Source: Nitrospirota bacterium
GTDB taxonomy: Bacteria > Nitrospirota > Thermodesulfovibrionia > Thermodesulfovibrionales > UBA6898
NCBI GenBank assembly: GCA_021825805.1
Contig: JAKAGF010000001.1
Span: 1-38,904, forward strand
Direction: 5' to 3'
Length of the DNA: 38,904 nt
Position 1 is the first letter of the stretch. Each line of letters begins with the position of its first letter. Of this stretch, positions 3,016 to 19,350 are shown piece after piece. Below the pieces are notes generated by a model. The model did no database searches and was not told the DNA's origin. It was given only the letters and a program-made list of their open reading frames with translations. The position numbers were made by a program, and so were the translations under genes.

Positions 3016-3310
3016 GACCCTCTTCTTTTCGGCTATGAAGTCTTTCTTGATCGTCCGGGGCGTGACGTGAACCGGCCGGCCACAGCGATGAGGGGAATAT
3101 TGTAACGCGGCGGAATGCCGCTGTCAAAAGACAACAGCCGATCATCCCTCTTTTCGGAATCAGGCGGGAGCACGGCCGCGCAATTACGGGCACGCCCCTT
3201 AGCGTTTCAGTTTTTTTATTGAATTTTGGCTGTTCTCCATATTATCATTTTATAGCTGCTCATACGACAACAACCATAGAGACAGCAGCTTCAATCTCAG
3301 GACGGTCAAC

Positions 3311-6166
3311 ATAAAAAGTCTCAAAAGAAAGTTTTTCTGGATCCTCCTCGCCGGGGTTGTCTTCTTCTTCGGTATTCTGACCTTTCTGATACTTCATCGG
3401 GAAAAGAGGCTGATCCTCAACATCTACAAGCAGGAAGCCCTCATGACAGTTAACGTGATAGCCGACCAAATCATCCACCTGATGGCCGAGAAGAACCCCG
3501 GGGCAGCCGCCGAGAAGATCGACGCATACAACAAGGCAGGCAAAATAAAGATAGGCGTCGCAGGGCCGGACGGTCTGCCCGCGTTTCATACCGATATCGT
3601 CATCCCTGCTGCCTATTTCAAGGCGCATGAGGAGCGTTTTGTCGCATCAGACAGCGACTATGTCTTTTTCAAGCCTCTTGCCAATACGAAGAACTGCCAC
3701 GGATGTCACAGCGCCGCAGACAAAACCCGGGGTATGCTCGCCATCAAGGGCTCCCTGGCACAGGCCGACAAAGAGGTCGCCGATACCGCCAAGCGGCTAC
3801 TGATCCTTGCCGTCATCATCGGCCTGGCCAGCGAGGTCTTTCTCCTGGTGGTTTTGCGAAAAACAATCCTGAAGCCTGTTGAACAGCTCAACGAAGGGGC
3901 TGCGCTCCTGCAGGCAGGCAGGCTTGACCACCGAATACCCATCACCGGCGATGATGAGATCGGGTCCCTGGCAGCCTGTTTTAACAGGATGACGGAGAGC
4001 ATTCAGAAGTCCCACGTTCATCTGGAAGACGCCATGCGCCAGCGGACTACGGAACTCCGGGTGATAGCGGAACTTTCAATGAAAGTATTCAAGGGCAACC
4101 TCAGCGCAAACGCCATCATTGAGCAGTTTCTCGCCTCCATAACAGGAAGTTTCGGGTTCGGCTACGCTGCCCTCTGTCTCGTGGATAAAGAGACAGGGCT
4201 CCTGTCCCAGGAATTCAGCAAGGGGATAAGCCAGGGGTTCTGTTCCATGGAGGTATCCATGGCCAGCGAGCACATCCTCACCAGGACGATACGGGAGGCA
4301 AGGGCGGTCATCAGATCAGCCGGAGACATCGGCATACCCGATGTCTTTACGAACGTGGCTATCGTTCCCCTTCTTTCCCACCAGCGGCGGCGCTGCAGGG
4401 AGATCAACCTCTGCGCCCACGAGGATTGTCCTGCCCATGCTAATGAAGACGACCGATGCTGGCTCATCAGCGGCACGCTCTGCAGAAGCCCCCAGGCGGT
4501 TGCAGGGAAGGAGAAAATCTACGGCTGCCTCCACTGCGATGTCTTCCCGGTCCTCGGGGTCCTCATTGCGGGCCGAAAGGATGAGGTCCCGGACTCCTCC
4601 CTGCACTCACTCGAGATCATCGGATCAGAGATCGCCTCAGCCATCGAGAACCATCGGTTTATCGACGCCAAGAAAAACGACATAGCCAAGCTGATCAGGC
4701 TCCATGACATATCAGTCGAATCCCTGCAGAACCCGGGGAAGACGCTGACAACGTCGATCGTTTCGTCGGTAATGGCTTTTTCGAATGTCGACGCGGCTAT
4801 GCTCCTGCTTGCGGAAGACAACAGCACGCTGCGTCTCGCTGACGCCTCGGGCATTGACACGGACGGCCTTCCCTCCATTATCCCGTCCGCCGATTCCTTC
4901 GTCTGGACAGCCATCAGGGAGGACCGTCCCGTGGAGACCCTAAAGATGGCCGAGTTGTCCTGTTTCGAGGAGATCATCACACGCGAAAGTTTCCTCTACG
5001 CCGCCTCCGTGCCCCTTCGGTTCAAGGAAACGGTCTTCGGCTGCCTCGCCCTTTTCAGGAGGCGGGACTTCTTCATGACCGACTCTGAAAAGGCGGTTAC
5101 GCTGCTCTTCGCAAGCCAGGCGTCTGCTGCCCTCAATACGTCGAGGCTCTTTTCTTCGGTAAAGGCTGAACAGGAATTCTCCGACGCCATCTTCAATTGC
5201 GCGGCAAGCGGCATCATGGTCCTTGACCGCGAGGGGCGGATTCTCAAGATCAACGGCATGGGCGCGGAGATACTGCGCATCGACGCGATAGTCGCCCCTG
5301 GCTGGAAGATCACGGACCTGTTCCCGGAGCTTGAGGACGTACTCCTGTTCGGTCTCGGCATCGGCAGGGAGGTGAATATCTCCTGCCCCGACGGAACTAC
5401 GATACCCATCGGTTTCTCCAACTCCCCCCTCTTCGACGCGCCTGACGGAAAAATGGGGATCATCGTACTGTTCCGCGACCTCACCGAAATAAAAAAGCTG
5501 CAGGAGGAATTGAGAAGAAAGGAGCATTTCGAGGCGATGGGCATGGTCCTCTCCGGGGTGGCGCACGAGATAAGAAACCCGCTCTTCGGCATCTCCTCCA
5601 TCGGGCAGATCCTTGACCGGGAGATCGACATCCCCCAGTACAAGTCCCTTATCCAGGCGATGCTCAAGGAAACAGAACGGATGAAGCGGCTGCTGGAGGA
5701 GCTCCTCCTCTACACGCGGCCCGCGCGTCTTGATATCAAAGAGGTGGACCTCGGCAATCTCTTCGAGGATATGCGCCATTTTGTCAGCGGCAAGAGGGAC
5801 GACATCACCCTCACCGTTAAGATGCCCCCGCGTCTCGCTGTTTCCGCTGACAAAGACAAGCTAACCCAGGTCTTTCTGAACCTCCTGAACAACGCCATCG
5901 ACGCGGCGCGTCACGCCATCACCCTCTCCGCCTGGAAGCAGGGGAACAATGTGCGAGTGGAGATCGCGGACGACGGGACAGGCATACCCGAGGAAAATCT
6001 GCAGCGCATATTCGATCCCTTTTTCACGACAAAAAAGGGAGGGACGGGCCTCGGGCTCCCGATCTGCAGAAAGATCATCGAAGATCACGGCGGCGCCATC
6101 GAGGTCCGCAGCAACGCCGGCAGGGGGACTACGGTGATCGTGATCTGTGCGGCGCCGGAGGCCTGA
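3311..6166 (+). CDS. Multi-sensor histidine kinase (TM - periplasmic CxxCH haem-c-type domain - TM - HAMP - GAF with Cys-rich insert - GAF - PAS - HisKA - HATPase)
   Basis: The ORF track gives 3443..6166 (907 aa). Motifs seen: NCHGCH (CxxCH) between two hydrophobic helices, a HAMP-like segment after helix LLILAVIIGLASEVFLLVVL, a PAS-like FNCAASGIMVLDREGRILKING, H-box SGVAHEIRNPLFGI, N box LLNNAIDA, and G boxes DDGTGIP and GGTGLGL. The same frame stays open back to the TAG at 3200. Upstream of M3443 it encodes a signal-anchor helix (KRKFFWILLAGVVFFFGILTFLIL) with no ATG/GTG/TTG. ATA at 3311 preceded by AGGA (3299-3302) is the best start candidate. The start coordinate is therefore uncertain (3311 or 3443). 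Confidence 0.85.
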   Translation: MKSLKRKFFWILLAGVVFFFGILTFLILHREKRLILNIYKQEALMTVNVIADQIIHLMAEKNPGAAAEKIDAYNKAGKIKIGVAGPDGLPAFHTDIVIPAAYFKAHEERFVASDSDYVFFKPLANTKNCHGCHSAADKTRGMLAIKGSLAQADKEVADTAKRLLILAVIIGLASEVFLLVVLRKTILKPVEQLNEGAALLQAGRLDHRIPITGDDEIGSLAACFNRMTESIQKSHVHLEDAMRQRTTELRVIAELSMKVFKGNLSANAIIEQFLASITGSFGFGYAALCLVDKETGLLSQEFSKGISQGFCSMEVSMASEHILTRTIREARAVIRSAGDIGIPDVFTNVAIVPLLSHQRRRCREINLCAHEDCPAHANEDDRCWLISGTLCRSPQAVAGKEKIYGCLHCDVFPVLGVLIAGRKDEVPDSSLHSLEIIGSEIASAIENHRFIDAKKNDIAKLIRLHDISVESLQNPGKTLTTSIVSSVMAFSNVDAAMLLLAEDNSTLRLADASGIDTDGLPSIIPSADSFVWTAIREDRPVETLKMAELSCFEEIITRESFLYAASVPLRFKETVFGCLALFRRRDFFMTDSEKAVTLLFASQASAALNTSRLFSSVKAEQEFSDAIFNCAASGIMVLDREGRILKINGMGAEILRIDAIVAPGWKITDLFPELEDVLLFGLGIGREVNISCPDGTTIPIGFSNSPLFDAPDGKMGIIVLFRDLTEIKKLQEELRRKEHFEAMGMVLSGVAHEIRNPLFGISSIGQILDREIDIPQYKSLIQAMLKETERMKRLLEELLLYTRPARLDIKEVDLGNLFEDMRHFVSGKRDDITLTVKMPPRLAVSADKDKLTQVFLNLLNNAIDAARHAITLSAWKQGNNVRVEIADDGTGIPEENLQRIFDPFFTTKKGGTGLGLPICRKIIEDHGGAIEVRSNAGRGTTVIVICAAPEA

Positions 6167-7186
6167 CTACGCCCTCTTCAATACCTCGCCGGCGATGGAT
6201 GTGAGCGGGAGGACCATGTCAACAACGCCTCCTTCCGCGGCAGCCCGCGGCATGCCGTAGATTGCCGACGTCGCCTCGTCCTGGGCGATGGTGAATCCGC
6301 CCTGCTCTTTGATAACTCCCATTCCACGCGCTCCGTCAGAGCCCATTCCGGTTAAAAGCACGCCTATCGAGCGGCCTCCAGCGCGCTCGCCCACGGAGCG
6401 GAACAGCACGTTGACCGAGGGCCTGTGGATCTCGTCCATCGGTTCTATGTCCAGCCGCACTTTATAGCCGCTCCCTGTCGTTCTGACGGTCATGTGAAGG
6501 CCGGCAGGGGCTATGAGGGCTGTCCCGGGCTCGACTGCGTCACCTTCTTCAGCCTCTCTGACAGCGATTGAAGACGTCGCATCCAGCCTCTTCGCCAGTG
6601 GAGCGGTAAAGCCGCGCGGCATGTGTTGAACGATTAGAAGCCCGAAGGATATCTCATGCGGGAACTTCGGAAGGATCATATGAAGCGCCATCGGACCCCC
6701 TGTGGACGCTCCCATGGCCACGATATCAACAAGACCCTTTGTCCTCCCCCGGTAAAGCTCTGCTTCCCGCGTGGCGATCCGCAGCGGCCTGCCCCCGGCT
6801 ATGGACTTCACCTTCCCTATGATCTCCTTCGCAAGATCGAAGAAGTCCATCATGCCGGTCGAAGACTTGTCCACAAAATCCATCGCCCCCATCTCAAGGG
6901 CCTTGAGCGTCAGTTCCGCCCCATCCCGCGTAAGTTGCGACAGCATGAGAACCGGGGTGGGCAACTCATCCATAATCGCCCGGAGGGTCTCTATCCCGTC
7001 CATCTCAGGCATCATCACGTCAAGGGTAATGACATCCGGCTTCAGCGTTCGGACCTTTTCCAGCGCCTCCCTGCCCGAACAGGCAAGGCCGACGAGTTCG
7101 ATATCAGGATCAGACTGAAATATCCTCTGAAGGGCCTTGCGTACAAAGGCGGAATCATCAACAGCAAGAACTCTTATTCTGCGCAT
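6167..7186 (-). CDS. cheB: Chemotaxis response regulator protein-glutamate methylesterase CheB
   Basis: It has a REC domain (RVLAVDDSAFVRKAL, DVMMPEMDG) and a methylesterase domain (GASTGGP, LTGMGSDGA, IAQDEATSAIYGMP). I moved the start to ATG 7186 (MRRIRVLAVDD). The track start at 7435 would overlap the upstream gene by ~190 nt. Confidence 0.92.
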   Translation of the reverse strand: MRRIRVLAVDDSAFVRKALQRIFQSDPDIELVGLACSGREALEKVRTLKPDVITLDVMMPEMDGIETLRAIMDELPTPVLMLSQLTRDGAELTLKALEMGAMDFVDKSSTGMMDFFDLAKEIIGKVKSIAGGRPLRIATREAELYRGRTKGLVDIVAMGASTGGPMALHMILPKFPHEISFGLLIVQHMPRGFTAPLAKRLDATSSIAVREAEEGDAVEPGTALIAPAGLHMTVRTTGSGYKVRLDIEPMDEIHRPSVNVLFRSVGERAGGRSIGVLLTGMGSDGARGMGVIKEQGGFTIAQDEATSAIYGMPRAAAEGGVVDMVLPLTSIAGEVLKRA

Positions 7187-7241
7187 GCGGTCGCATATCC
7201 TTTCAGGAACAGACTGTCGTCGCCAGGGGACCTCTCTTCCG

Positions 7242-8396
7242 TCACTCCCGCGGCCCGCGCCTCTCCATCTCAGCCAGCCCGAGACGAGCAGCCTGCCGCA
7301 CTTCCTCCTCGGGATCAGACTGCATCTTTGCGAGCGCGGCGCGGGCCCGAGCCATGTCCAGCGCTCCGAGAGAAAGAGCGACCTCTGTCCGCACCTCAGG
7401 ATCTTCATCTTCAGCAAACTGCAGAAGGGCCACATTCTGTCCCGTCATGCTGAGCAGCTTCGCCAGGACAACCCGGTGCGGTCCCGCCGACGCCCTGAGT
7501 TCATCCACAATGCTGCAGAGGGCCCTCCTTCCCATGCCCCACAGCCCTTCGATGGCATACTCCTGAAGCTCATCATCCTTGAGCCCGTCAATCATATAGG
7601 GGATAACCGCAAAGTCCCGCGACCAGCAGAGCGCCACGAAGGCATATTTTTTTATATCAGGGTCCGGGTTTTTGAGCATCTCGATCATCGTCGTCACGAG
7701 GCTGGCAAAATACTCCGGGTTCGGCCTGATGCGCTCCCTGCCGGCGATGGTGACAATCGCCCTGAGAGCGGCTTCCCTGAACCGCGGTTTGCGGACACAC
7801 GCGGCAAGATGCCCGATGGACTCCCGGTTGCCGGCCCGTTCGATCGCCTGAAGCGCCGGCGCATCGAGGCCCTCCCGGTCGAGACATTGGTAGAGTATAT
7901 CAAGCGCCTCCGGGCCGCCCATCTCCCCAAGGGCGTGGACAGCCGCCATGGCAACCCACGGATCATCCTGAAGCGCTTCCCAAAACACGCCCAGGGCAGC
8001 GCTGTCGCCGATCTTTCCCAGGGCCTCCACGCAGGCTGCGCGCACATTGATATCCTCGTCTGCAAAAGCGGCGATGAGGAGGGAGACGCTGCCTGTATCC
8101 CTGATTGCGCAGAGCATATTCGCCGCAAACAGCCGCACCTCCCGGTCCTCGTCCCGGATGAGCGCCTCAAGATGCGGCAGCGCCCTGGGTCCCAATGAAA
8201 CAAAGACCTCCATCGCCGCTGTGCGCGCATCGGCATTATCGTGATTCCGCACGCCCTCCGCAAGACAGGCGACATAGGAATACTCGTCATAGGACTGCAG
8301 GGCCGCGGAAGCCCGCCTCCTGGCCCACCAGTCCCGGCCCGCCAGACCCTCTATGATTTCCCGGACCCTTTCACCCGCATCCCTCATGGGTCGCAA
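7242..8396 (-). CDS. HEAT-repeat (PBS-lyase HEAT-like) protein, paralog 1
   Basis: 384-aa ORF built from repeated D-x-D/E-x-x-VR-x-x-A-x-x-ALG-x-IG units (e.g. DEDREVRLFAANMLCAI, DEDINVRAACVEALGKIG, DPEVRTEVALSLGAL, EEEVRQAARLGLAEM). It is collinear with ORF 9265..10407. The start is either TTG 8396, abutting the cheR stop, or ATG 8387. Confidence 0.8.
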   Translation of the reverse strand: MRPMRDAGERVREIIEGLAGRDWWARRRASAALQSYDEYSYVACLAEGVRNHDNADARTAAMEVFVSLGPRALPHLEALIRDEDREVRLFAANMLCAIRDTGSVSLLIAAFADEDINVRAACVEALGKIGDSAALGVFWEALQDDPWVAMAAVHALGEMGGPEALDILYQCLDREGLDAPALQAIERAGNRESIGHLAACVRKPRFREAALRAIVTIAGRERIRPNPEYFASLVTTMIEMLKNPDPDIKKYAFVALCWSRDFAVIPYMIDGLKDDELQEYAIEGLWGMGRRALCSIVDELRASAGPHRVVLAKLLSMTGQNVALLQFAEDEDPEVRTEVALSLGALDMARARAALAKMQSDPEEEVRQAARLGLAEMERRGPRE

Positions 8397-9284
8397 TCAG
8401 GTTCGCTGCTGTCCCGCATCCGCCTGCGCTTCACTGTTCTTCCGGTATACGATCACCTTCTCGCGGTACTCGGGGGTGAACAGGTTCGTCTTCTGGATGA
8501 GGCTCTCCGCCGACCCGATGAACAGGTAGCCCGTTTCCGTGAGTGCGCTGCTGAAGTTACTGACGAGCCTCTCCGTAGCCGGATCGCTCATATAGATCAG
8601 GACATTCCTGCAGAAGATGACATCCACGGGCGCAAGGCCGGCGTAGAGGCCGCTGTCCAGGATATTTGCGTGCCTGAATTCCACATTCTTCGCGTACGCC
8701 CTCTTCAACTCGTAGCGGCCGTCTTCCACGGTAAAGTATCTTTGGATTCTGCTCATGTCGCCATTGAGGCTTCTGAAGGAGTTTGCCGTATAGGTTGCGG
8801 CATGCGCCTTGCTGACCGCCGTGCGATCGATGTCAATGCCGATGATCTCCACATCCCAGTTCCAGGCGAAGAGCCCGCTTTCGTGGATGAGGATGTTAAG
8901 GGAATAGGCCTCTTCGCCGCTTGAGGAAGCGAGAGACAGAATCCTGAGTCGCTGTTCTCCGCCCTGTTTCTCCCTCTTTATGTCCTGCAGTATCTCCGCC
9001 AGGGCGTCCAGTTGTGGACGCTCGCGAAAGAAATAGGTCTCGTTGTTGGTAATGTGAGACGCGAGAATGAAGAGTTCCTCGCGCGTCGGGTCCGCGACAA
9101 TAAAGTCATAGTATTCCTTGTATGTTGAGAGTCCCAGGATGCTCAGCCGATGGGAGACCTTTGTATGGAGGGTGAGCCTCCGGTCTCCCCGCAGCAGGAT
9201 GCCGAATTCCCGCTCGATGAGATCGCGAAGGGACGAAAACTCCTCCGCGCTCATTATTGTTTTTTTATCGGGAAAGGCCGTCAT
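8397..9284 (-). CDS. cheR: Chemotaxis protein-glutamate O-methyltransferase CheR
   Basis: 295 aa. It has the CheR N-terminal helical region (EEFSSLRDLIEREFGILL), a SAM-binding region (RILSLASSSGEEAYSLNILI) and VIFCRNVLIYM. It overlaps the upstream HEAT gene by 20 nt. Confidence 0.9.
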   Translation of the reverse strand: MTAFPDKKTIMSAEEFSSLRDLIEREFGILLRGDRRLTLHTKVSHRLSILGLSTYKEYYDFIVADPTREELFILASHITNNETYFFRERPQLDALAEILQDIKREKQGGEQRLRILSLASSSGEEAYSLNILIHESGLFAWNWDVEIIGIDIDRTAVSKAHAATYTANSFRSLNGDMSRIQRYFTVEDGRYELKRAYAKNVEFRHANILDSGLYAGLAPVDVIFCRNVLIYMSDPATERLVSNFSSALTETGYLFIGSAESLIQKTNLFTPEYREKVIVYRKNSEAQADAGQQRT

Positions 9285-10407
9285 TGCCGGCGCCCCCTTT
9301 CATCAACTGCAGGGAAAGCACTGCCGCTGCCTTCACCTCGTCAACAGGGTCCGCGGACAGCTTCACGAGGAGGGCCTTGGCCTCCGGCGTATTTACAGTC
9401 CCCAGGGCAAGGGCAGCCTCGGTCCTCACCTCGGAATCCGCATCGCCGGCAAACTCCGGAAAGGCATGGACTTCACCGGTCATGGAAAGAATTTTGGCCA
9501 ATATCCCCCTCTGCCCTCCCCGGCCCCTCAGCGCCCCGATAATGTCAGGAACAGCATCCCTGCCCAGAGCCATAAGACCGTTAATGGCATGTTCCTGTAG
9601 CCCGTCATCGCCGAGCGCCGCGATCAGGCATGGCGCTGCATCCGCCTTCCCGGCCCAACTGAGGGCGATGAGAGCGGCCCTGCGGACAGCAGCGTCGGGT
9701 GACTGCACAAGGTCCTTAAGGACCGGCAGCGTCTCCGCGATAAATAAGGGGGATGGCATCACGCATTCCCTTTCCGCGATGGTCACAAGCGCCCTGAGGG
9801 CCAGCCCGCCGATCTCGCCCCGGCCCACATACTGCATGAGTTGTTCCACGGAGGCGCGGTCTCCGGCCCGTTCAAGGGCCTCGCAGGTCATGCCCCGGTA
9901 TTCCCCACGGACGAGGAACCGGTGGAGGACCGTCCGCGCCTCATCCCCTCCTATCCTGCCAAGGGCGTCGACAGCCGCCATAACAGACCATGGGGAATCC
10001 TCAAGCCTTCGGGCGAGGACGCCGACCGCCCTCGCGTCGCCCATCTTCCCGAGGGCCTCGATTGCGGCTATACGCACGTTCACATCCGTATCCTCGAGGG
10101 CCTCGATGAGGGCCGTCAGGGCGTCCTTGTCCCCGATATCTCCGATCAGATTCGCTGCAAAAATCCTGATGTCAGCATCACTGTCCGAAAGGAGTGACAC
10201 CAGGAAGGCCGTTGCCCCGGAACCCAGGGCCCTGAATACCTCCATGGCGATATTCCTCGACAGATGATCCTCACCCTTCCTGAGCCATGATTCGAGGACA
10301 GCGAGGTGCCGCTCCTCATGGCCCGCTGCAAGCTCTTCGATCTCCTTCTTCCGCGACCACCAGTCTTTCGTCCTGAGCCTGTTCAGCCTGTCCTGGTTCT
10401 CGTCCAT
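9265..10407 (-). CDS. HEAT-repeat (PBS-lyase HEAT-like) protein, paralog 2
   Basis: 380-aa ORF with the same repeat grammar (DSDADIRIFAANLIGDIG, DTDVNVRIAAIEALGKMG, DSEVRTEAALALGTV, DPVDEVKAAAVLSL) and the same N-terminal KDWW/RDWW motif as paralog 1. The ATG at 10407 is preceded by GGGGGAGGA. Confidence 0.8.
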   Translation of the reverse strand: MDENQDRLNRLRTKDWWSRKKEIEELAAGHEERHLAVLESWLRKGEDHLSRNIAMEVFRALGSGATAFLVSLLSDSDADIRIFAANLIGDIGDKDALTALIEALEDTDVNVRIAAIEALGKMGDARAVGVLARRLEDSPWSVMAAVDALGRIGGDEARTVLHRFLVRGEYRGMTCEALERAGDRASVEQLMQYVGRGEIGGLALRALVTIAERECVMPSPLFIAETLPVLKDLVQSPDAAVRRAALIALSWAGKADAAPCLIAALGDDGLQEHAINGLMALGRDAVPDIIGALRGRGGQRGILAKILSMTGEVHAFPEFAGDADSEVRTEAALALGTVNTPEAKALLVKLSADPVDEVKAAAVLSLQLMKGGAGNDGLSR

Positions 10408-10428: not shown

Positions 10429-12939
10429 CTACGCCTCTATGCCCTGAATCGCCTTGAAGGCCTCACAGGTCATGCAGTTCCTGAGCTTTGAGCGGAAATC
10501 TCCCTGCTGGCTGCCCTGGCACCACGTTCCTGCTATCTGCCAGCAGCGATGTTCCCCGACATTATATGCCGGGCATTTATGCCGGGAGCTGGTCGGACAG
10601 TTCATGATATCCCAGCACCTCTTGTTGCCGTTGGAATGTATGATAAAGGAGCTGATGGAGTATTGGAGGTTTTCTATCTGAAAGAGAGTCTCCTCCGACA
10701 TGCCCACCATGTCCTTTGACAGATTGAGGTTCTGGCTGGATATGTTGCTCATGCCCTCCATGGCCTTTACTATCGTCTCGCCGCCGAGCTTCTGTTCGGC
10801 GGTCGAGTTGGCGACCCCCTGCGTCATGGTGCTCATGATCTCCACCGCCTGGACGATCTGCCTGGCGCCGCCTACCTGTTCCTTGACCGCGGTCCCGACT
10901 TCGTGGACCAGGGTCTTCATGCGTTCAATCACCTCGCGCATCTGCCTTCCGCCGATAGCCTGCTCCCGGGTGGCGGTGTTCACTTCCTGCACCATTTTGT
11001 TCATCCTGTCGATTGACTGCCGAACGCTGCCGGCTCCCTTTGCCTGGGCCTGAGCCGCGGCCGCGACCTCATCCGACGACGTATTCATATCAACCACATA
11101 CTTCATCACCTGCTCAATGGCCGTGTTCAGTTCTCCGGCGGACTTCGCGATCCCCTGTATCACGTCGGAACTCTCCTTCATGGACGTGATGATCGACGAG
11201 AAGGCGTCCCTGCTGTTCTCCGCAAGGGTTATGCCGTCCTTGCCCTCGCGGTATGTTTCTTCGGTCGCCTTGATCGCAGTCACTGTTTCCTGCTGCACCT
11301 TCTTGATCACCCCGCCGATCTCTTTCGTCGCCTCCATGGAACGCTCCGCCAGCTTCCGTATCTCCTCCGCAACAACGGCGAAGCCCCTGCCGGCGTCACC
11401 AGCCCGCGCCGCTTCTATGGCCGCATTCAGCGCCAGAAGGTTCGTCTGGTCGGCGATCTCGTCGATCACCTCCACAATCGATCCTATCTCCTCTGAGCGT
11501 TTCCCGAGGTTCTGGATGATCTCCATCGTCTTTTCCGTTGTCTTGCCGATGTTCTGAAGGCTTTCCATACTCCGGTATATAGCCTTGCCTCCCTCCTCGG
11601 CCTCGCTGAATGCGTCCCGGCTCAGCTTGTTGGCGCCGCCGATCCTTCCCACAACCTCCTTGACGGTCCGCGTCATCTCCTCGATCGTCCCCGAGGTCTC
11701 CACTACCATGCTCTTCAGGGAATCAGCGCTCCTGGCAATCTGCTCAATGGACGACAGGAGGTTCTCAACAGTCATCGATGTGTCACTTACCGAATCGGTC
11801 ATCGACGACGTATTCCTCGCCGTCTGGTCCACGGACACCAGCATCTGTTCAATCGTCGCCGAGGTCTCCTCCACCGAAGCGGCCATGCTGTCGGCGCTCT
11901 TGCCGACCTGCGCGATGGATGCGGCCATCTCATTAATGGTCGCGGATGTTTCGTCCACGTTCGTTGCCAGCGCCTCGGCGTTTTTTGCCGCCTTGGAGAT
12001 GGAGACCGACATCTCTTCCACCGACGACGTCGTCTCATCCGTTACCGCCGCCTCCTCCTGCGCCGCCTTCGAGAGCTGGGTCGAGCCCCTGGAAACCTTG
12101 TCGGCATTCAGGGCGACATGGTACGAGGAGGCCACCGCATTCTTCACCATGCCCTGGAGGTTCTTCACCATATCGTTGAAGTAACCCGCAAGCATCCCGA
12201 CCTCATCCTTGCTCTTCATGTCCAGCTCCTGCGTCAGGTCTCCCGCGCTTATCTTCTTCGTCGTCTCGGCCAGCTTCATCAGCGGCCGGGTGATGCTCCG
12301 GCTGATAATGAGTCCGGCGGCAACGGTGAGCAGCGCCGCGACTATCAGGACCCCTGCCATCACTCGGATGGTCTGTCCGATTACCGCATGGGCCTTTCCC
12401 TCCATGGCGTCAATCCGCTTGTTGCCCTCATCAGCAAAGTCTTTTGCGGTTGTTTCGAGGCGGTGTATCTCGTCCTTGTATTCCGTTATCGCGGCATTGC
12501 CCTCCTGCGGCGTCTTTATCTTCTTTTCCTCAACCTGTCTGAAGACCTTGAGGAACCCAGCTTCATAATTAGCGCCCTCAGTCCTCATCGTCTTGACTAC
12601 CGCTTTGTCCTGCTCGGTAATCGCTGCCTTGTCTATGTCATCGAGCCGTTTCTTTAAATGGTCGAGCTGCTCGTCCCATTTCTTGCGGTACTCAGCGACC
12701 TTCTCCGGCTTTTCGATGTTCAGGAATATGTCCTTTTCGTACCGCCGCAGGCCGAGGACATTCGCGCGTGCGCGCGCGGAATGCTCCGCGATATTCCCGT
12801 CTATTTTCAGCATCCTTGTCATCTGCCTCGAAACCGTATCTACGCCCCAGTAAGCGGTGCCGCCCAGGACGAGCAGCAACAACAGCAACAGCGTGAACGC
12901 GATACCCAGCCTGACCCCTATTTTCACATTCTCAAGCAT
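10429..12939 (-). CDS. Methyl-accepting chemotaxis protein (4-helix-bundle sensor, HAMP, extra-long signalling domain, C-terminal 7-Cys module)
   Basis: The track ORF is 10429..13041. I moved the start to ATG 12939, which has AAGGAGG just upstream and is followed by TM1 ([27 protein letters not shown]). The periplasmic region is 4HB-like ([11 protein letters not shown]), followed by TM2 and HAMP. The MCP hairpin tip reads [41 protein letters not shown]. The C-terminus is [10 protein letters not shown]...NCMTCEAF. Confidence 0.93.
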
Positions 12940-12995
12940 CCTGACCTCCTTGCAAAATATCACCGAATTTCGTAATGGACCGCCGGCTCGGAATG

Positions 12996-15356
12996 TCACC
13001 CCACTCCCTGGATGACCCGATAAGCCTGACACGTCATGCAATTTTTAAGCTTCGAACGGGCATCGCCCTGCTTCAATCCCTTGCACCAGGTCCCGCTGAT
13101 GCGCCAGCAGCGGTCTTCTTCGGCATTGAAGGCCGGGCACTGCTGCCGCGAGCCCGTCGGACAGTTGAGGATGTCCCAGCAGCGGTGGCCGCCGTTCGCG
13201 CTGATCCTGAAGTTGCTCATTGTATACTGGAGGTTCTCAATCTGGAAGAGGGTGTCCTGGGCAAGATCAACCATGCCTTTTGAAAGCCTGAGGTTCTCGG
13301 TGGATATCTGGTTCATGCCTTCCATGGCCCGGGTGATATTCTCGCCGCCGTGTCGCTGCTCTGCCGTCGCGTTGGCCACTCCCTGCGTCATGGCGCTCAT
13401 CGTCTCCATCGCCTGCGCGATCTGCTTTGCCCCCCCAACCTGTTCCTTCACCGCAAGGCCTACCTCATGCACGATCGACCTCAGGCGGTGCACCATCTGA
13501 CGTATTTCATGACCGCCCTTTGACTGCTCCGCGGCGGCGATGTTCACCTCCTGGACCATGCGGTTCATCTTGTCGAGCGAACCGCGGATCGAGGCCGCGC
13601 CGTTTGCCTGCTCCTTAACGGAGACCGTCACCTCGTCGGCGGACGCGTTCATGTCCATCACATACTTCAGCGCCTGTTCAATCGCCGTGTTCAGCTCTCC
13701 GGCTGACCTGGCTATCCCCTCTATCACCTCGGAACTCTGCTTTACAGACGTAATAATCGCCGAAAAGGCGTCGCGGCTGTTTTCCGCGAGCAGGATGCCT
13801 CCCTTGCCTTCGCGGTAGGTCTCTTCCGTTGCCTTGATCGCAACCCCGGTCTCCTCCTGCACCTTCTTGATCACCCCGCCGATCTCTTTCGTCGCCTCCA
13901 TGGAACGCTCTGCCAGCTTCCGTATCTCCTCCGCAACAACCGCGAAGCCCCTGCCGGCGTCACCAGCCCGCGCCGCTTCTATGGCCGCATTCAGCGCCAG
14001 AAGGTTCGTCTGGTCGGCGATCTCGTCGATCACCTCCACGATCGATCCTATCTCCTCTGAGCGTTTCCCCAGCCCCTGGATTATCCCCATCGTTTTTTCG
14101 GTCGTCTGTCCGATATGCTGCAGGCTCTCCATGCCCCGATAGATCGCCTTGCCGCCCTCTTCAGCTTCCTGGTACGCCTCCTGCCCGAGCCGGCTCGCGC
14201 CCCCTATCCTGCCCACGACCTCCTTGACGGTCCGGGTCATCTCCTCGATAGTCGACGTCGTGTCGCCCACCATGTTCTTGAGCGAGTCGGCGCTCCGCGC
14301 TATCTGTTCGACCGACGCCAGCAGGTTCTCGACCGTCAGCGACGTTTCGCTCACAGCGTCGGTCATCTGCGCCGAGTGCTTCGCCGTCTGCTGTACCGAC
14401 GCAATCATCCCTTCGACCGTCGCCGTAGTCATCTCTACCGACGCCGCCATCTGTTCGGCGCTCACGCCCACCTGCTCGATAGAGGCGGCCATCTCGGCGA
14501 CCGTCGAGGAGGTCACCTCGACGTTCTCCGAAACCGCCTCAGCGCCCTTCGCCACCTGCCCGATAGACACTGCCATCTGTTCCATGGAGGACGTCGTCTC
14601 GTCCGTAGCGGCCGCTTCCTTCTGCGACGCAGCGGCTATGGCATTTGAGTTGTCCGAGACCCGGCCGGCAACGTCCACCACCCTGAAGGCCGACTCGAGC
14701 GTCTGGCCGACCGTGCTCCTGAAACTCCCGATCATCCTGTCGATGTCCCGGCTCAACTCGCCGATCTCGTCGCCGGCGCCGGTGTCCAGAGTGCGGGAGA
14801 GGTCGCCTGCGGCCACCTTCTCCATCCCCTGCTTGAGCCGCTGAATAGGCCGATGGGCGAGCACCCTGAAGAGGACATAGACTATCAGGGAAACCGACAG
14901 GATCGTGCCGGCGGAAAGGAGCAGGACGATGAGCTGGGACCTGCGCAGCGCCCGATTGATATTATCGGTAGTGAAGACGATCCTGGCGGCGCCGACCTGC
15001 TCGCCGCCCTGCATGATCGGACTCGCGTACTCCCTGAGCTCCACGGCCCCCTCCTTCTGCTTCAATTGCGTGAGGGGCTTTCCGTCTTTGTCGAGAATCA
15101 CCGCATGGACGATATCGGCGTCACGGGACGTGATGTCAGCCACGTAATTTTCGAGGTAGGCGAAATTATAGCTCAGGATCGGCTCGGCAGAGATACCCGC
15201 GAGAAACTTTACCAGATTGTCGCCCCTCTTGTTCAGTTCGGAAAGGAAAAGACGACGCTCGTGCATCCCTATGCTCACGATCGTCACCACCGATATCAGG
15301 GCCATCGCAAGCAGGATGCCGGAAAGAAATTTTTTCGTTAATTTCCAGTTTTTCAT
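12996..15356 (-). CDS. Methyl-accepting chemotaxis protein (small periplasmic sensor, HAMP, extra-long signalling domain, C-terminal 7-Cys module)
   Basis: 786-aa ORF. It has TM1 ([20 protein letters not shown]), a ~120-aa periplasmic domain, TM2, HAMP ([40 protein letters not shown]), the same hairpin tip as the neighbouring MCP, and the C-terminus [10 protein letters not shown]...NCMTCQAY. Confidence 0.93.
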
Positions 15357-15421: not shown

Positions 15422-16282
15422 TCAGAGAGCGCCCGCCAGTCTGGCCGCCTGGCGGAGGTGATCATAGTCCCTGTCCGACACCGGAGAAAAAGCGGTAAGC
15501 TTCGCCGACCCCAGGACTTTCTCGGTCGCGGCTTCACCATGTTTGAGCTTGAGCAGCGCGGCCCTTACCTTCTCGGCTGTTGCTTTATTCAGCTTGTTCG
15601 TCGCAAATACCGGCCAGTTGGGAAAATAGTCGGTATACGAGACGATCTTGAGCTGATTCACATCCACCTTGTCCTTCATCTTTTCGAGATCGTCCTCGCG
15701 GATGCCGCCCGCATCAGCCGATCTGTTAAAGACCGCCATCGTGACGTTGTCATGCTTTTTCGCAAAGGGGAGTTTGATGAAATCCTTGTTGACATCGAGC
15801 CCCGCCTTGCTCAGCAGGAGCATCTGAAAGATATACCCGGCCGCTGAATCCTTTTCCACAAAGATGAGCTTCTTGCCCTTCAACTGCTGGATCTTGTCGA
15901 TGCCGCTGTCCTTGCGTGCGATGATGACGCCCCTGAACTTCGTCCCGCCTTTTTTTTCAGCGGAAAGGGCGAGCGGCTCGATCGCCGCATCCTTCTTCAG
16001 CTGCACATAGATAAGCGAATTGGCAAACCCCAGTTCCACCTGCCCCGCCTTCACCATGGCCTTGAACGTGTCAAAGTCCTTGGGCACGACGAGGGTCACC
16101 TGCTCGCCCGTCTCCTTGGACAAATACTCCGCAAGGGGTCTGAACATGGCGTTGAGTTCCACCGCGCCCAGGCGCGGGAGTATCCCCAGTTTGACTTCGG
16201 CCGACGAAAGTCCCTGCGCCGCCAAGAGCACGAACACAATAATAAGAGCACGAATAAGTCTGCTTCCAACTGCGTTGATCAT
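15422..16282 (-). CDS. Periplasmic solute-binding protein, PhnD-like (phosphate/phosphonate-binding fold); no cognate ABC transporter genes nearby
   Basis: I moved the start to ATG 16282, which has AGGAG upstream. The signal peptide is MINAVGSRLIRALIIVFVLLAAQGLSSA. The mature part (KLGILP...FRPLAEYLSKETG...ELGFANSLIYV...FRGVIIARKDSGI...AAGYIF) looks like the PhnD/Phosphonate-bd family as I remember it. Confidence 0.7.
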   Translation of the reverse strand: MINAVGSRLIRALIIVFVLLAAQGLSSAEVKLGILPRLGAVELNAMFRPLAEYLSKETGEQVTLVVPKDFDTFKAMVKAGQVELGFANSLIYVQLKKDAAIEPLALSAEKKGGTKFRGVIIARKDSGIDKIQQLKGKKLIFVEKDSAAGYIFQMLLLSKAGLDVNKDFIKLPFAKKHDNVTMAVFNRSADAGGIREDDLEKMKDKVDVNQLKIVSYTDYFPNWPVFATNKLNKATAEKVRAALLKLKHGEAATEKVLGSAKLTAFSPVSDRDYDHLRQAARLAGAL

Positions 16283-16322
16283 GTGATCTCCTTTCGGGTG
16301 TGACAAAATAACGGCAGTTTCT

Positions 16323-16841
16323 TTACCCCTGTTCCACATCACTCGTCTCGAATTTTTCGCGCCGCAGAAGCTTTTCGAGATCGAGCAGAATGACAAGACG
16401 CTCCTTCAGCTTGCAGACTCCAGTCAGGTAGTCGGTGTCCACTTCGAGCACCTCCTCGGGCGGCGCCTCCACAACGCCCGCCGGGACCCGGATAACGTGC
16501 GAGACGGCATCTACAAGCAGTCCGATCACCTTGCTGCCCACCTCCGTGACGATGATCCGCGAACTCTTGCTCAGGCCGCAATCCTCCAGTTTCAGCCGCT
16601 TCCTGAGATTCAAAACAGGGAGCACCCTTCCGCGAAGGTTGATGACGCCTTCCATATAGGCCGGCGAGTTCGGCACCCTCGTTATGCCCGCAACGCGGAC
16701 GATCTCCCTGACCTGGCTGATGGGGACTCCGTATTCTTCCCCCAGGTTGAAGGTGATGATCTGGGATTCCTTTAACTCTTCCTTGTAATCGGCCAGGATC
16801 TCCTCGGCAAGCCCCGCCGCGGGCAATTTCATGTTAGACAT
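16323..16841 (-). CDS. cheW: Chemotaxis coupling protein CheW
   Basis: The CheW-like domain reads IITFNLGEEYGVPISQVREIV...VINLRGRVLPVLNLRKRL...RIIV...GLLVDAVSHV. The start is set at ATG 16841 with GGAGG 9 nt upstream. The track start (TTG 16871) is also possible. Confidence 0.9.
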   Translation of the reverse strand: MSNMKLPAAGLAEEILADYKEELKESQIITFNLGEEYGVPISQVREIVRVAGITRVPNSPAYMEGVINLRGRVLPVLNLRKRLKLEDCGLSKSSRIIVTEVGSKVIGLLVDAVSHVIRVPAGVVEAPPEEVLEVDTDYLTGVCKLKERLVILLDLEKLLRREKFETSDVEQG

Positions 16842-16874
16842 GTTCACGTCCCTCCTTATCGTTGCAGTCAAGGA

Positions 16875-18503
16875 CTACTCGCACGCGTTCACCTTTTCCT
16901 GACAGTTCACTTTGCCGTTCCAGAACGAAGTGACATCTATGATCAAGACGACCCTTCCGTCTCCGAGTATGGAAGCCCCCGCTATGCCGAATGATTTCCC
17001 AAAGGTATCGTCAAGGGGCTTGATGACGATCTCCTGCTGCCCCCTGAGCCTGCTGACGGCAAGGGCAACGCGTTTTTCTCCACTGCCGAGTATCACAAGA
17101 TATAACCGCCGCGGCCGTTTGCCGGAAAGGCCGAAAAACTCATCCAGCCTGATGACCGGCATGACGCGGTTTCTGAACCGGATGACCTCCCGGTTGTTGA
17201 TGATATGGATCGCCTCGTCGCGGACCTTGATGCTCTCGTCCACGGCGCTCAGGGGGATCGCGAATACCTCGCCCCCGGCCTCTGTCATGAGGGCCGGAAT
17301 GATGGCAAGACTGAGGGGGAGCTTTATGGTGAACAGCGTCCCCTTCCCGGGAACGCTGTCAGCGGAGACCTGCCCGTTGAGGTTTGAAATGTTCCTGCTG
17401 ACCACATCAAGGCCGATACCCCGGCCCGAGACATCGGTCGCCTCCTGTTTAGTCGTAAACCCGGCGGAAAAGATGAGGGAAAGGGCCGCCTCCTTGCTGA
17501 GCTGATCATCGGGCCCGATCAGCCCTTTCCTTGCCGCGGCCTCCCGTATCCGCCCAACGTCCATTCCCCTGCCGTCATCCATGACTTTTATGATCACGTA
17601 GTTGGATTCCTGTCCCGCTGAAAGGGTGATCGTGGCTGAGTGGGGTTTGCCGAGACCGGATCTCTCGCGGGGCGGCTCTATGCCGTGATCCACCGCATTT
17701 CTGATGATATGCAGCAGCGGCTCTTCCAGTTCGTCGATTATCGTCTTGTCGAGTTCGGTGTCTTCCCCCTCGAATGCAAGTCTGATTTCCTTGCCCTGTG
17801 CCTTGGCGAGGTCCCGCACCATCCGGGGGAACTTGTGAAATACCGTGCTCACGGGAAGCATGCGGGCCCTCATGATGCCCTCCTGAAGGCCCGCGATCAT
17901 CTTCCCCATCGCATCGAGCCCGTCCTTCAGCTCTTTCGTCGTCGCCTTGTTGCGAACCTCTCCCCGTATCTGGGTTTCGATCTGGTTCAGCCTTGTCTTG
18001 TAGATGACCAACTCCCCGACCAGGTTGAGAAGGTCATTGAGTTTCTTGAAGTCAACTTTAATGGTATCCGTCTTCGTGCCGAGATATGCAGCCGGGTCCG
18101 CCGGTTGTATGTCGAGGCCGGACGCGCCTCCGTTGAGACATTCCCTGATCAACCCGATGCCCTCAGTCAGTTCGGGTTTTGAACGGGGGTTCTCCCCGAT
18201 CTCGCGGAGGGTGTTCCGGATGATGTGGGCGCTGTCAAACAAAAGCCCCATCGCCTGTCCCAGCTCAAGATCATTGTCGAGCACCTTTTTCAGGATGCCC
18301 TCAACCTCGTGCACAAAGGCCTTCAGGGACTCATATCCCATCATCCCGGCATTGCCCTTGAGCGTGTGGAGCGACCCCAACGTACCGGTGACGGTGTCCC
18401 TGTTGAAGCCGTTTTGCTCCAGCGACATCAGGGCTCCGTCGAAGGCCGCAAGATGGCCGTCGGCGTCATCAAGGAAGTCTTTTATGAGCTCTGAGAATTC
18501 CAC
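16875..18503 (-). CDS. cheA: Chemotaxis histidine kinase CheA (P1-P3-P4-P5; no P2 domain)
   Basis: The Hpt/P1 domain carries the phospho-His context GSLHTLKGNAGMMG. P3 is IKVDFKKLNDLLNLVGELVI. The P4 HATPase has HIIRNAVDHGIE, DDGRGMD and GRGIGLD. A CheW-like P5 domain sits at the C-terminus. I set the start at GTG 18503 (VEFSELIKDFLDD), 10 nt after the cheY stop. The track start at 18611 would overlap cheY by ~100 nt. Confidence 0.92.
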   Translation of the reverse strand: MEFSELIKDFLDDADGHLAAFDGALMSLEQNGFNRDTVTGTLGSLHTLKGNAGMMGYESLKAFVHEVEGILKKVLDNDLELGQAMGLLFDSAHIIRNTLREIGENPRSKPELTEGIGLIRECLNGGASGLDIQPADPAAYLGTKTDTIKVDFKKLNDLLNLVGELVIYKTRLNQIETQIRGEVRNKATTKELKDGLDAMGKMIAGLQEGIMRARMLPVSTVFHKFPRMVRDLAKAQGKEIRLAFEGEDTELDKTIIDELEEPLLHIIRNAVDHGIEPPRERSGLGKPHSATITLSAGQESNYVIIKVMDDGRGMDVGRIREAAARKGLIGPDDQLSKEAALSLIFSAGFTTKQEATDVSGRGIGLDVVSRNISNLNGQVSADSVPGKGTLFTIKLPLSLAIIPALMTEAGGEVFAIPLSAVDESIKVRDEAIHIINNREVIRFRNRVMPVIRLDEFFGLSGKRPRRLYLVILGSGEKRVALAVSRLRGQQEIVIKPLDDTFGKSFGIAGASILGDGRVVLIIDVTSFWNGKVNCQEKVNACE

Positions 18504-18513
18504 GCGCCGGCTG

Positions 18514-18927
18514 CTATGCGCTACCCAGTTTTTCGAGGAACGGCGACTTCTTGATGATAACCTTCTCGATGATCTCGTAGAGCACGTGGGGCTTGAACGG
18601 TTTGACCACATAACCCCATGCCCCGAGCTTCAATGCCCTGAGGGTGTCCTCCTCCTTGCCCTCGGTGCTGATGACAATGATCGGGATCTGCCGGTAGAGA
18701 TTCTCGGCCTTGAGCTTTTCCATGAACTGCAGACCGTTCATCACCGGCATATTGATGTCGAGGAGGATAAGATTGAAATCGCTCTCCCTCGACAGGACGT
18801 CGAGGGCCTCCAGGCCGTTCATGGCGTCGACTATGCGGCAGCCGTTGTACCGGTTAAGCACGAGCCGGTACATGGAGTGTATGAGCTGAGAGTCATCAAC
18901 GATCAGCACTTTGCCTAATGTATTCAT
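18514..18927 (-). CDS. cheY: Single-domain response regulator CheY
   Basis: 137 aa. Motifs are VLIVDDSQLIH, the phospho-acceptor context LLDINMPVMNG, ISTEG and VVKPF. Confidence 0.88.
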   Translation of the reverse strand: MNTLGKVLIVDDSQLIHSMYRLVLNRYNGCRIVDAMNGLEALDVLSRESDFNLILLDINMPVMNGLQFMEKLKAENLYRQIPIIVISTEGKEEDTLRALKLGAWGYVVKPFKPHVLYEIIEKVIIKKSPFLEKLGSA

Positions 18928-18960
18928 ATTCCGCTCCTATGAGTTGCTGTCATGCAGTTT

Positions 18961-19350
18961 CTATACCTTTTGCGCCGGCGGGACGGGAATGCCGAGCGTC
19001 CTGACCTTCGAGATCAGGTGTGAGATGTCTATGGGCTTCTCATAATAATGAAACGCCCCCCGCCGGTATGCATCCTCCTCCATCTCCGCGGAACCGTATG
19101 CCGTCATGATGATCACCTCGGTCCGCGGGCTTGCCTTCTTCACATAGCTCAGAAGCTCAAGCCCCTCGATACCGTACATGCCGCTTAAACGTATGTCCGC
19201 GATAACGAGATCGAATGTATACCGTAAAAGCGCCTCTTCAGCCTCCTCAATCTTGTCGCTGGTGATGACCATTGTATCCTTGCTGCTCAGAATGTGCGAG
19301 AGCGTCATCAGGATAGTCTCCTCGTCATCAACGATGAGAATCTTTTTCAT
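18961..19350 (-). CDS. Stand-alone receiver (REC) domain protein
   Basis: 129 aa. Motifs are ILIVDDEETI, VIADIRLSGMYG, IIMTAYGS and YYEKP. It is the first gene after the sigma-54 promoter. Confidence 0.85.
   Translation of the reverse strand: MKKILIVDDEETILMTLSHILSSKDTMVITSDKIEEAEEALLRYTFDLVIADIRLSGMYGIEGLELLSYVKKASPRTEVIIMTAYGSAEMEEDAYRRGAFHYYEKPIDISHLISKVRTLGIPVPPAQKV

Follow-up and report, generated by a model that had tools for sequence, protein, structure and literature searches.

What could a compact seven-cysteine module be doing at the very end of a chemoreceptor's signalling helix? Two adjacent genes for methyl-accepting chemotaxis proteins (MCP-A and MCP-B) raise this question in a 38,904-nucleotide stretch of DNA from a Nitrospirota bacterium (assembly GCA_021825805.1, contig JAKAGF010000001.1, positions 1 to 38,904; hereafter the window), as each encodes a cysteine-rich C-terminal tail of about 55-60 amino acids belonging to a family catalogued as the 'two-CW domain'. 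We propose that this domain is an autonomous, cytoplasmic, cysteine-ligated metal-centre input domain for signalling proteins, most likely housing an iron-sulfur (Fe-S) centre and reporting redox state, O2 or nitric oxide (NO), a reading to which, taken whole, we assign about an even chance. Of its parts, metal binding is very probable and a sensory rather than structural role is probable, while the choice of Fe-S over Zn is finely balanced.

Results

A seven-cysteine module ends both chemoreceptors and recurs in a neighbouring histidine kinase

Both receptor genes read from the minus strand, and translating the tail coordinates on the plus strand gives nonsense. In minus-strand translation the module occupies 10444-10623 in MCP-A (residues 773-832; C1-C7 at 10465-10617), where the protein ends 11 residues past C7, and 13008-13187 in MCP-B (residues 724-783; C1-C7 at 13029-13181). 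The first-pass annotation, which had been made from the letters of the window, claimed that both tails share the spacing C-x5-C-x7-C-x9-C-x7-C-x14-C-x2-C and that all seven cysteines, both CW dipeptides and the CP dipeptide are invariant between them; minus-strand translation and a regular-expression search bore out each of these statements. The two CW dipeptides fall at C1 and C4. The spacing expression matched the six-frame translation of the window three times (the two tails and a copy in a histidine kinase), compared with 0.0 matches on average in 200 residue shuffles. The seven cysteines of each module are the only ones in their receptor (7 of 836 residues in MCP-A and 7 of 786 in MCP-B). 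The tail coordinates in that annotation also stood, running from the last sense codon to the first cysteine codon, whereas the peptides quoted alongside them begin one residue earlier, at an arginine, and are reproduced by minus-strand translation of 10432-10620 and 12999-13184. The annotation omitted the strand and the copy in the kinase.

The module had further been described as cytoplasmic, attached to the end of the signalling helix and free of an NWETF-type pentapeptide, and this description is accurate. In this C-terminal form, heptad-spaced hydrophobic residues (L-x6-L-x6-F) continue to 8-9 residues before C1, on which ground the tail is predicted to be tightly joined to the end of the receptor bundle and not carried on a flexible tether. 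The receptor C-termini read QGIEA and IQGVG, with no xWxxF pentapeptide in either.

The third copy lies on the plus strand at 4388-4549, within a sensor histidine kinase of 907 amino acids (3443-6166, plus strand) that is convergent with the 3' end of the che operon. The kinase comprises a transmembrane segment (residues 119-137), HAMP (138-188), the two-CW-like module (316-369), GAF (435-564), PAS (581-682), HisKA and HATPase_c, so that the module sits between HAMP and GAF, with C1-C7 at 4394-4537. Its spacing, C-x5-C-x4-C-x9-C-x7-C-x14-C-x2-C, retains all seven cysteines with the C2-C3 spacer shortened to x4; CR replaces the first CW and the second CW is kept.

The seven cysteines are invariant across a large family

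We searched 1.84 billion cluster representatives (50% identity clusters) exhaustively with a profile and recovered at least 900 proteins, each representing a cluster, at E ≤ 1e-3, of which 68 reached E ≤ 1e-10. This search was used because the indexed homologue search was too insensitive for so short a domain, returning 1 match for the 67-amino-acid tail and 11 for a 139-sequence alignment. Conservation was scored over the 153 full-length modules contributed by the top 150 proteins and P0001 (clusters less than 50% identical). All seven cysteines are 100% conserved (153 of 153), next to W7 at 93%, W31 at 96%, P21 at 92%, T36 at 99%, K49 at 97%, and a glutamate or aspartate two residues after C1 at 88%; the loops between C2 and C3 and between C3 and C4 differ in length among modules. 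The resulting family pattern, C-x5-C-x(4-7+)-C-x(8-10+)-C-x7-C-x~14-C-x2-C, is present in all three window copies.

Because the search profile rewards cysteines, we also counted less biased samples. All seven were found in 57 of 58 genomic tails, whose loci had been fetched by a pattern containing C5 only, and in all 14 stand-alone neighbours identified by adjacency only, 13 of which replace the second tryptophan with tyrosine. Loss of the cysteine pattern in homologues had been named beforehand as grounds for abandoning a sensory metal module; the pattern was kept throughout these samples save for one tail. On these alignments, the constrained feature is the set of cysteines and not the CW dipeptides, the second tryptophan being non-essential. 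The lone cysteine variant (C3 to F) occurs in L042, in the second (open reading frame (ORF) starting at 1201) of two tandem tail-bearing MCPs of a Methanoperedens-type archaeon, and this receptor may be a degenerating paralogue.

The tails belong to a catalogued, functionally unexplored family

The first-pass annotation had suspected that the module corresponds to NCBI's 'two-CW domain', and profile comparison places it there. The NCBIfam model NF045718 ('two_CW_domain', curated cutoff 35 bits) scored 42.2 bits for MCP-A and 36.5 bits for MCP-B as full proteins, and 47.8 and 42.6 bits, respectively, for the tails alone, all above the cutoff. All 139 aligned family modules match NF045718 and no other NCBIfam model, and a stand-alone homologue bears the NCBI name two-CW domain-containing protein. 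Aligning NF045718 to the tails opens a gap, 59 residues being placed on profile positions 2-78, and the model seems to have been built on forms with a longer C2-C3 loop. A family hidden Markov model (HMM) that we built from the 139 sequences scored 85.2 bits for the MCP-A module and 81.2 bits for the MCP-B module. The kinase copy, detected at 33.5 bits by an HMM from three tails run on the six-frame translation, gives a full-length match to the 139-sequence HMM (53.3 bits, E = 6e-18) and a partial one to NF045718 (29.4 bits, E = 7.7e-7, profile positions 26-75 only), below the 35-bit cutoff. By the NCBI cutoff it is a divergent relative and not an NF045718 member.

The further claims that the module is uncharacterised, and that it is neither a CZB zinc domain nor a CxxCxxCxxxCP ferredoxin, survived every comparison made here. 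NF045718 is a domain model with a name and no assigned function, and it was the only NCBIfam model matched. No Pfam family, hemerythrin included, matches either tail at E ≤ 0.1, and the 139 modules gave only scattered noise and weak DUF2769 matches at E ≤ 1. CZB (PF13682) matched neither the tails (E ≤ 0.1) nor any of the 139 modules (E ≤ 1), and the eukaryotic zinc finger zf-CW (PF07496) was absent from all matches at E ≤ 1. DUF2769 (PF10967), itself uncharacterised, aligns with one stand-alone family member over the C3-C7 core (E = 8.5e-4, 20.3 bits; gathering cutoff 22.8) and weakly with 5 of the 139 modules, all below the gathering score; the window tails give no match to it. Profile searches against Protein Data Bank (PDB) sequences, both shallow and deep, returned importin Arm repeats as noise (E > 1) or nothing. 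The name 'two-CW domain' was found in no paper, full-text searches on Fe-S, cysteine-rich and metal-binding chemoreceptors and on C-terminal receptor domains found no description of the module, and the term cysteine is absent from the Geobacter chemotaxis genomics paper. The tails are therefore members of a catalogued family and not new as a sequence family, and that family is functionally and structurally unexplored.

The module is predicted to fold confidently and without a structural neighbour

AlphaFold2 (AF2) with the 139-sequence alignment modelled the module at a mean predicted local distance difference test score (pLDDT) of 90.4 and a predicted template-modelling score of 0.75; a run with 3 sequences was unusable (pLDDT 42) and was replaced by this one. 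The model contains four short helices and a beta-hairpin around C38, with the CxxC pair at a helix N-terminus. Foldseek comparisons yielded no structural neighbour in the PDB (best E 4.3, template-modelling score ~0.2), no match with E < 4 in BFVD and no ferredoxin fold. The predicted fold is provisionally novel, and only provisionally so because Foldseek is weak on domains this small.

The module is fused to signalling proteins and placed as an input

Pfam scans of the full-length proteins, the best 150 of the 900, revealed only signalling modules as fusion partners: MCPsignal in 65, HisKA/HATPase in ~20 and GGDEF in 11, with HAMP, PAS, GAF, Cache and CHASE3 domains, two CZB, one HD-GYP and two receiver domains among the remainder. 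The module is N-terminal to the output domain in 20 of 20 kinases and 10 of 10 GGDEF proteins. In 48 MCPs it lies C-terminal to the signalling domain, and in the other 14 it precedes that domain, either just after the second transmembrane segment or at the extreme N-terminus before the first; it is cytoplasmic at every position seen. Tandem copies occur in 14 proteins, and stand-alone proteins of 62-100 amino acids also exist. Judged by these signalling-only partners, the upstream position, the cytoplasmic placement and the tandem and stand-alone forms, the distribution is that of an autonomous input domain.

The named hosts are strict-anaerobe lineages in three distant phyla

Among 185,579 species-representative genomes, the subfamily pattern TWC[GK]GxxQGD (the 'GTWC' subfamily) matched 58 loci: ~37 from Nitrospirota/Thermodesulfovibrionales metagenome-assembled genomes (MAGs), ~11 from Methanoperedens/Methanosarcinales archaea and ~9 from Firmicutes (Thermincola, Syntrophothermus, Clostridia). 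The names on other family members (~15 proteins) add Thermodesulfobacteriota/Deltaproteobacteria, Eubacteriales and Desulfovirgula thermocuniculi, a cultured sulfate reducer. Every named host lies in a strict-anaerobe lineage, and these lineages span three distant phyla, archaea included. The survey of partners and phyletic spread that the first-pass annotation had proposed thus returned signalling partners and strict-anaerobe lineages only. A tblastn search found the module in 0 of 72,556 plasmids.

The receptors and their chemotaxis operon

The MCP-A gene (10429-12939, minus strand) encodes 836 amino acids, counted from an ATG, followed by a stop: a first transmembrane segment (residues 7-25), a periplasmic 4HB_MCP_1 domain, a second transmembrane segment (194-212), HAMP (212-262), a long MCP signalling domain and the two-CW tail. 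A TTG at 13041 would lengthen the ORF (12940-13041, minus strand) into the MCP-B 3' end; translation more likely begins at the ATG at 12939, as this codon leaves a 56-bp intergenic gap and stands just before the first transmembrane segment. The MCP-B gene (12996-15356, minus strand) encodes 786 amino acids plus a stop, with transmembrane segments at residues 11-29 and 143-161 enclosing a periplasmic region of ~110 amino acids, followed by HAMP, the MCP signalling domain and the tail. Its periplasmic domain (14700-15356, minus strand) gave no match in the Pfam scan, and an exact-sequence look-up of MCP-B returned no record. In the same scans MCPsignal (PF00015) scored 172.5 bits in MCP-A and 170.5 bits in MCP-B, and HAMP 60.9 and 42.4 bits; with two transmembrane segments each, both are by predicted domain content classical transmembrane MCPs. 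They are paralogues whose periplasmic parts are ~27% identical and whose signalling tips reach up to 100%.

The cytoplasmic coiled coil is unusually long in both receptors (~500 amino acids; residues 265-770 of MCP-A and the same region of MCP-B), contains internally repetitive segments and gives weak matches to tape-measure and SMC models. Its heptad class is possibly 40+24H, as in Geobacter.

The minus-strand operon reads CheY, CheY, CheA, CheW, binding protein, MCP-B, MCP-A, HEAT, CheR, HEAT, CheB. The upstream block (15422-19350) holds two CheY-like receivers (18961-19350 and 18514-18927), CheA (16875-18611), CheW (16323-16871) and, between CheW and MCP-B, a periplasmic binding protein of the Phosphonate-bd/NMT1 family (15422-16396), through which MCP-B could sense a ligand indirectly. 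The downstream block (6167-10407) holds two HEAT-repeat proteins (9265-10407 and 7242-8396), CheR (8397-9284) and CheB (6167-7171); the HEAT/PBS-lyase-repeat proteins, each of ~380 amino acids, are thus interleaved with CheR and CheB. The order CheW, tailed MCP, HEAT, CheR, an optional second HEAT and CheB is conserved across Nitrospirota loci, and from this gene order we conclude that the tail-bearing receptor is the dedicated receptor of a conserved Che pathway. The closest locus to the window, in a Nitrospirae MAG (L001), has neighbouring proteins 78-88% identical to those of the window and is without the insert of MCP-B and the binding protein. Near the tailed MCPs of the Methanoperedens/archaeal and Firmicutes loci, the window's HEAT and CheR probes found no match.

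At 13 Nitrospirota loci (L002, L003, L006, L009, L010, L013, L014, L018, L021, L022, L023, L025 and L026; at ~370-1000 in each) the tailed MCP is immediately preceded, on the same strand, by a small two-CW gene that stands alone (ORFs of 75-96 codons, with CY for the second CW), and in the archaeal locus L053 a stand-alone copy lies at 3207, just downstream of the tailed MCP. The window is without such a gene. This adjacency suggests that the stand-alone protein may be a partner for the tail through module-module pairing. A different stand-alone Nitrospirae protein, P0073 (91 amino acids, L060 5001-5276), holds one full and one partial module and adjoins an RsbRD_N protein; both lie in a gene cluster that includes multiheme cytochrome c, Fer4_11, NrfD, DsrM-like and DsrK-like genes.

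In the window's histidine kinase, residues 85-89 (3695-3709, plus strand) read CHGCH, a CxxCH c-type heme motif, within the 118-residue stretch before the only strong transmembrane segment. The ORF as called has no evident N-terminal signal or earlier transmembrane segment, which makes a periplasmic location and heme binding uncertain for this putative motif.

Discussion

The nature of the proposed centre

Seven invariant cysteines in a confidently folded cytoplasmic unit of ~55 amino acids point to a metal centre, and the retention of these cysteines in distant homologues, the signalling-only partners, the input position and the anaerobe-only hosts strengthen the case for a metal or redox input. 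That the module consistently precedes the output in kinases and cyclases favours a sensory over a merely structural role. Our lean towards Fe-S derives from the strict-anaerobe hosts in three distant phyla, the single CxxC pair, where two would be usual for Zn ribbons and knuckles, the conserved Cys-Pro and aromatic residues flanking the candidate ligands, and the stand-alone copy in a DsrMK/NrfD/4Fe-4S respiratory cluster.

Several observations weigh against this reading. Seven is an odd number of ligands that fits no canonical site, the cysteine spacing matches no known Fe-S motif, and no family of the Fer4 clan matches the tails or the 139 modules, which have one CxxC only. The cysteine invariance in the top 150 proteins is partly circular, the search profile itself rewarding cysteine. 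The likeness of the two window tails was dropped as evidence of constraint, as their identity (65%) equals that of the adjoining coiled coil (53-68%); the paralogous pair alone thus reveals no special constraint on the tail, and the evidence for constraint comes from the distant homologues. Host taxonomy is biased towards the one subfamily scanned, some host MAGs carry the loose label 'Nitrospira sp.', a genus that includes aerobes, and the anaerobe restriction could follow from shared lineage and habitat and not from cofactor chemistry. Finally, two family members bear a CZB domain as well, which also indicates that the module is not simply a CZB substitute.

A Zn site is the serious rival to an Fe-S centre, although we consider it distinctly the less probable account, with perhaps one chance in four. 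Two Zn ions could be held by the seven cysteines together with another ligand or a bridging cysteine, the acidic residue two positions past C1 being a possible eighth ligand, and the domain would then act as a structural cap or dimeriser or as a CZB-like thiolate-Zn sensor of oxidants or Zn. Small cysteine-rich domains are often Zn modules, AF2 folds this one confidently without a cluster, and the modelled hairpin around C38 and the CxxC at a helix N-terminus are common in Zn knuckles and treble clefs. Against this stand the single CxxC pair, the lack of a recurrent zinc-finger Pfam match among the 139 modules and the lack of a zinc-finger fold in Foldseek (WT1 matches at E = 10, template-modelling score 0.17-0.18); moreover, structural Zn modules are not normally restricted to strict anaerobes, and a purely structural role explains neither the consistent input placement in kinases and cyclases nor the existence of stand-alone forms.

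A further rival is protein docking, which we regard as improbable. The tail sits where an NWETF tether would, no pentapeptide is present, and HEAT, CheR and CheB genes are syntenic with the tailed MCP in Nitrospirota, so that the tail could dock CheR/CheB in place of the pentapeptide, or the HEAT-repeat proteins; the stand-alone gene beside the MCP (13 Nitrospirota loci and one archaeal) hints at docking of the stand-alone two-CW protein by module-module pairing. Receptor tethers in E. coli run to roughly 30 residues, and the ~9-residue linker seen here is short for a flexible tether. Docking is possible in this operon, but it cannot explain the kinase and cyclase architectures: the module is also found ahead of HisKA and GGDEF outputs and at the N-terminus of MCPs, positions in which tethering of CheR would make no sense, the window's HEAT and CheR probes are unmatched in the Methanoperedens and Firmicutes loci, and a docking peptide would not require seven invariant cysteines. 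Equally doubtful is a centre without a preformed metal site, either a thiol/disulfide switch or a metallothionein-like direct sensor of soft metal ions (Cu+, Cd2+, Fe2+, As), for which the high cysteine density and the metal-reducing or metal-exposed habit of several anaerobic hosts (Thermincola, Methanoperedens) could be cited. The fixed spacing, the single confident fold and the invariant W, P, T, G, Q and K residues favour a preformed site over a flexible thiol cluster, and disulfide switches usually need two cysteines, not seven invariant ones.

A proposed route from centre to kinase control

If the module is a cysteine-ligated metal sensor as we propose, its seven cysteines would hold, for example, a four-cysteine cluster with a second three-cysteine site, or two clusters, and O2, NO, oxidants or the cellular redox or Fe-S status would set the oxidation state or integrity of the centre. 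An altered centre would change the folding or packing of the module. With only ~9 residues between the module and the end of the receptor helix, such a change, near the membrane-proximal end of the C-terminal helix and by the HAMP junction, could shift the four-helix bundle and bias the control of CheA. The tail would in this way add an internal input to the periplasmic ligand input, as has been proposed for the C-terminal hemerythrin of DcrH, and the same module would feed the adjacent histidine kinase and, elsewhere, kinases and diguanylate cyclases. As an Fe-S input domain, the module would possibly work with the stand-alone two-CW protein as a partner.

Comparison with known sensors

DcrH of Desulfovibrio vulgaris, a strict anaerobe, has the same layout of a periplasmic domain, HAMP, an MCP signalling domain and then a small C-terminal domain, which in DcrH binds metal; that domain, a hemerythrin, is proposed to sense O2 and to mediate O2 avoidance (PMC13401364). 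It differs in being a diiron four-helix bundle with histidine and carboxylate ligands instead of seven cysteines, and is unrelated in sequence and fold. A July 2026 review of aerotaxis lists PAS, globin, PilZ and hemerythrin as receptor modules (PMC13401364), and iron-sulfur, Fe-S and cysteine are never mentioned in it. CZB (PF13682; e.g. Helicobacter TlpD) resembles the two-CW module in its cytoplasmic location, its frequent place after the MCP signalling domain and its occurrence on GGDEF proteins, and it is a metal domain, as we propose the two-CW module to be. Its Zn site, however, is a His3Cys site in a four-helix bundle, unlike the Cys7 module.

Fe-S signalling inputs include the [4Fe-4S] PAS domain of NreB, FNR, WhiB-like proteins and AirS, in which oxidation or loss of a cysteine-ligated cluster switches the output. 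The working principle that we propose is alike, and these proteins have other cysteine spacings and no sequence or fold relationship to the module. To our knowledge, none of them is found on a chemoreceptor. We put forward, with rather less confidence than the reading itself, that the two-CW domain may be a new Fe-S input domain with a fold not seen before, the first known on chemoreceptors, serving as a cytoplasmic sensor of O2, NO or redox state shared by strictly anaerobic bacteria and archaea across MCPs, histidine kinases and cyclic di-GMP cyclases.

Significance

Little is understood of how sulfate reducers, Methanoperedens, metal reducers and other strict anaerobes sense oxygen or their internal redox state in taxis and signalling. 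The two-CW module is compact (~55 amino acids) and occurs in at least 900 clusters and on all three major bacterial signalling outputs, yet it lacks a Pfam entry, a structure and a paper. Its small size and autonomy make it amenable to direct biochemistry, and the window offers a natural test bed, with two receptors that combine different periplasmic inputs with the same tail, together with a kinase that carries an internal copy. If the proposed metal or Fe-S cofactor is real, hundreds of sensors would be annotated at once.

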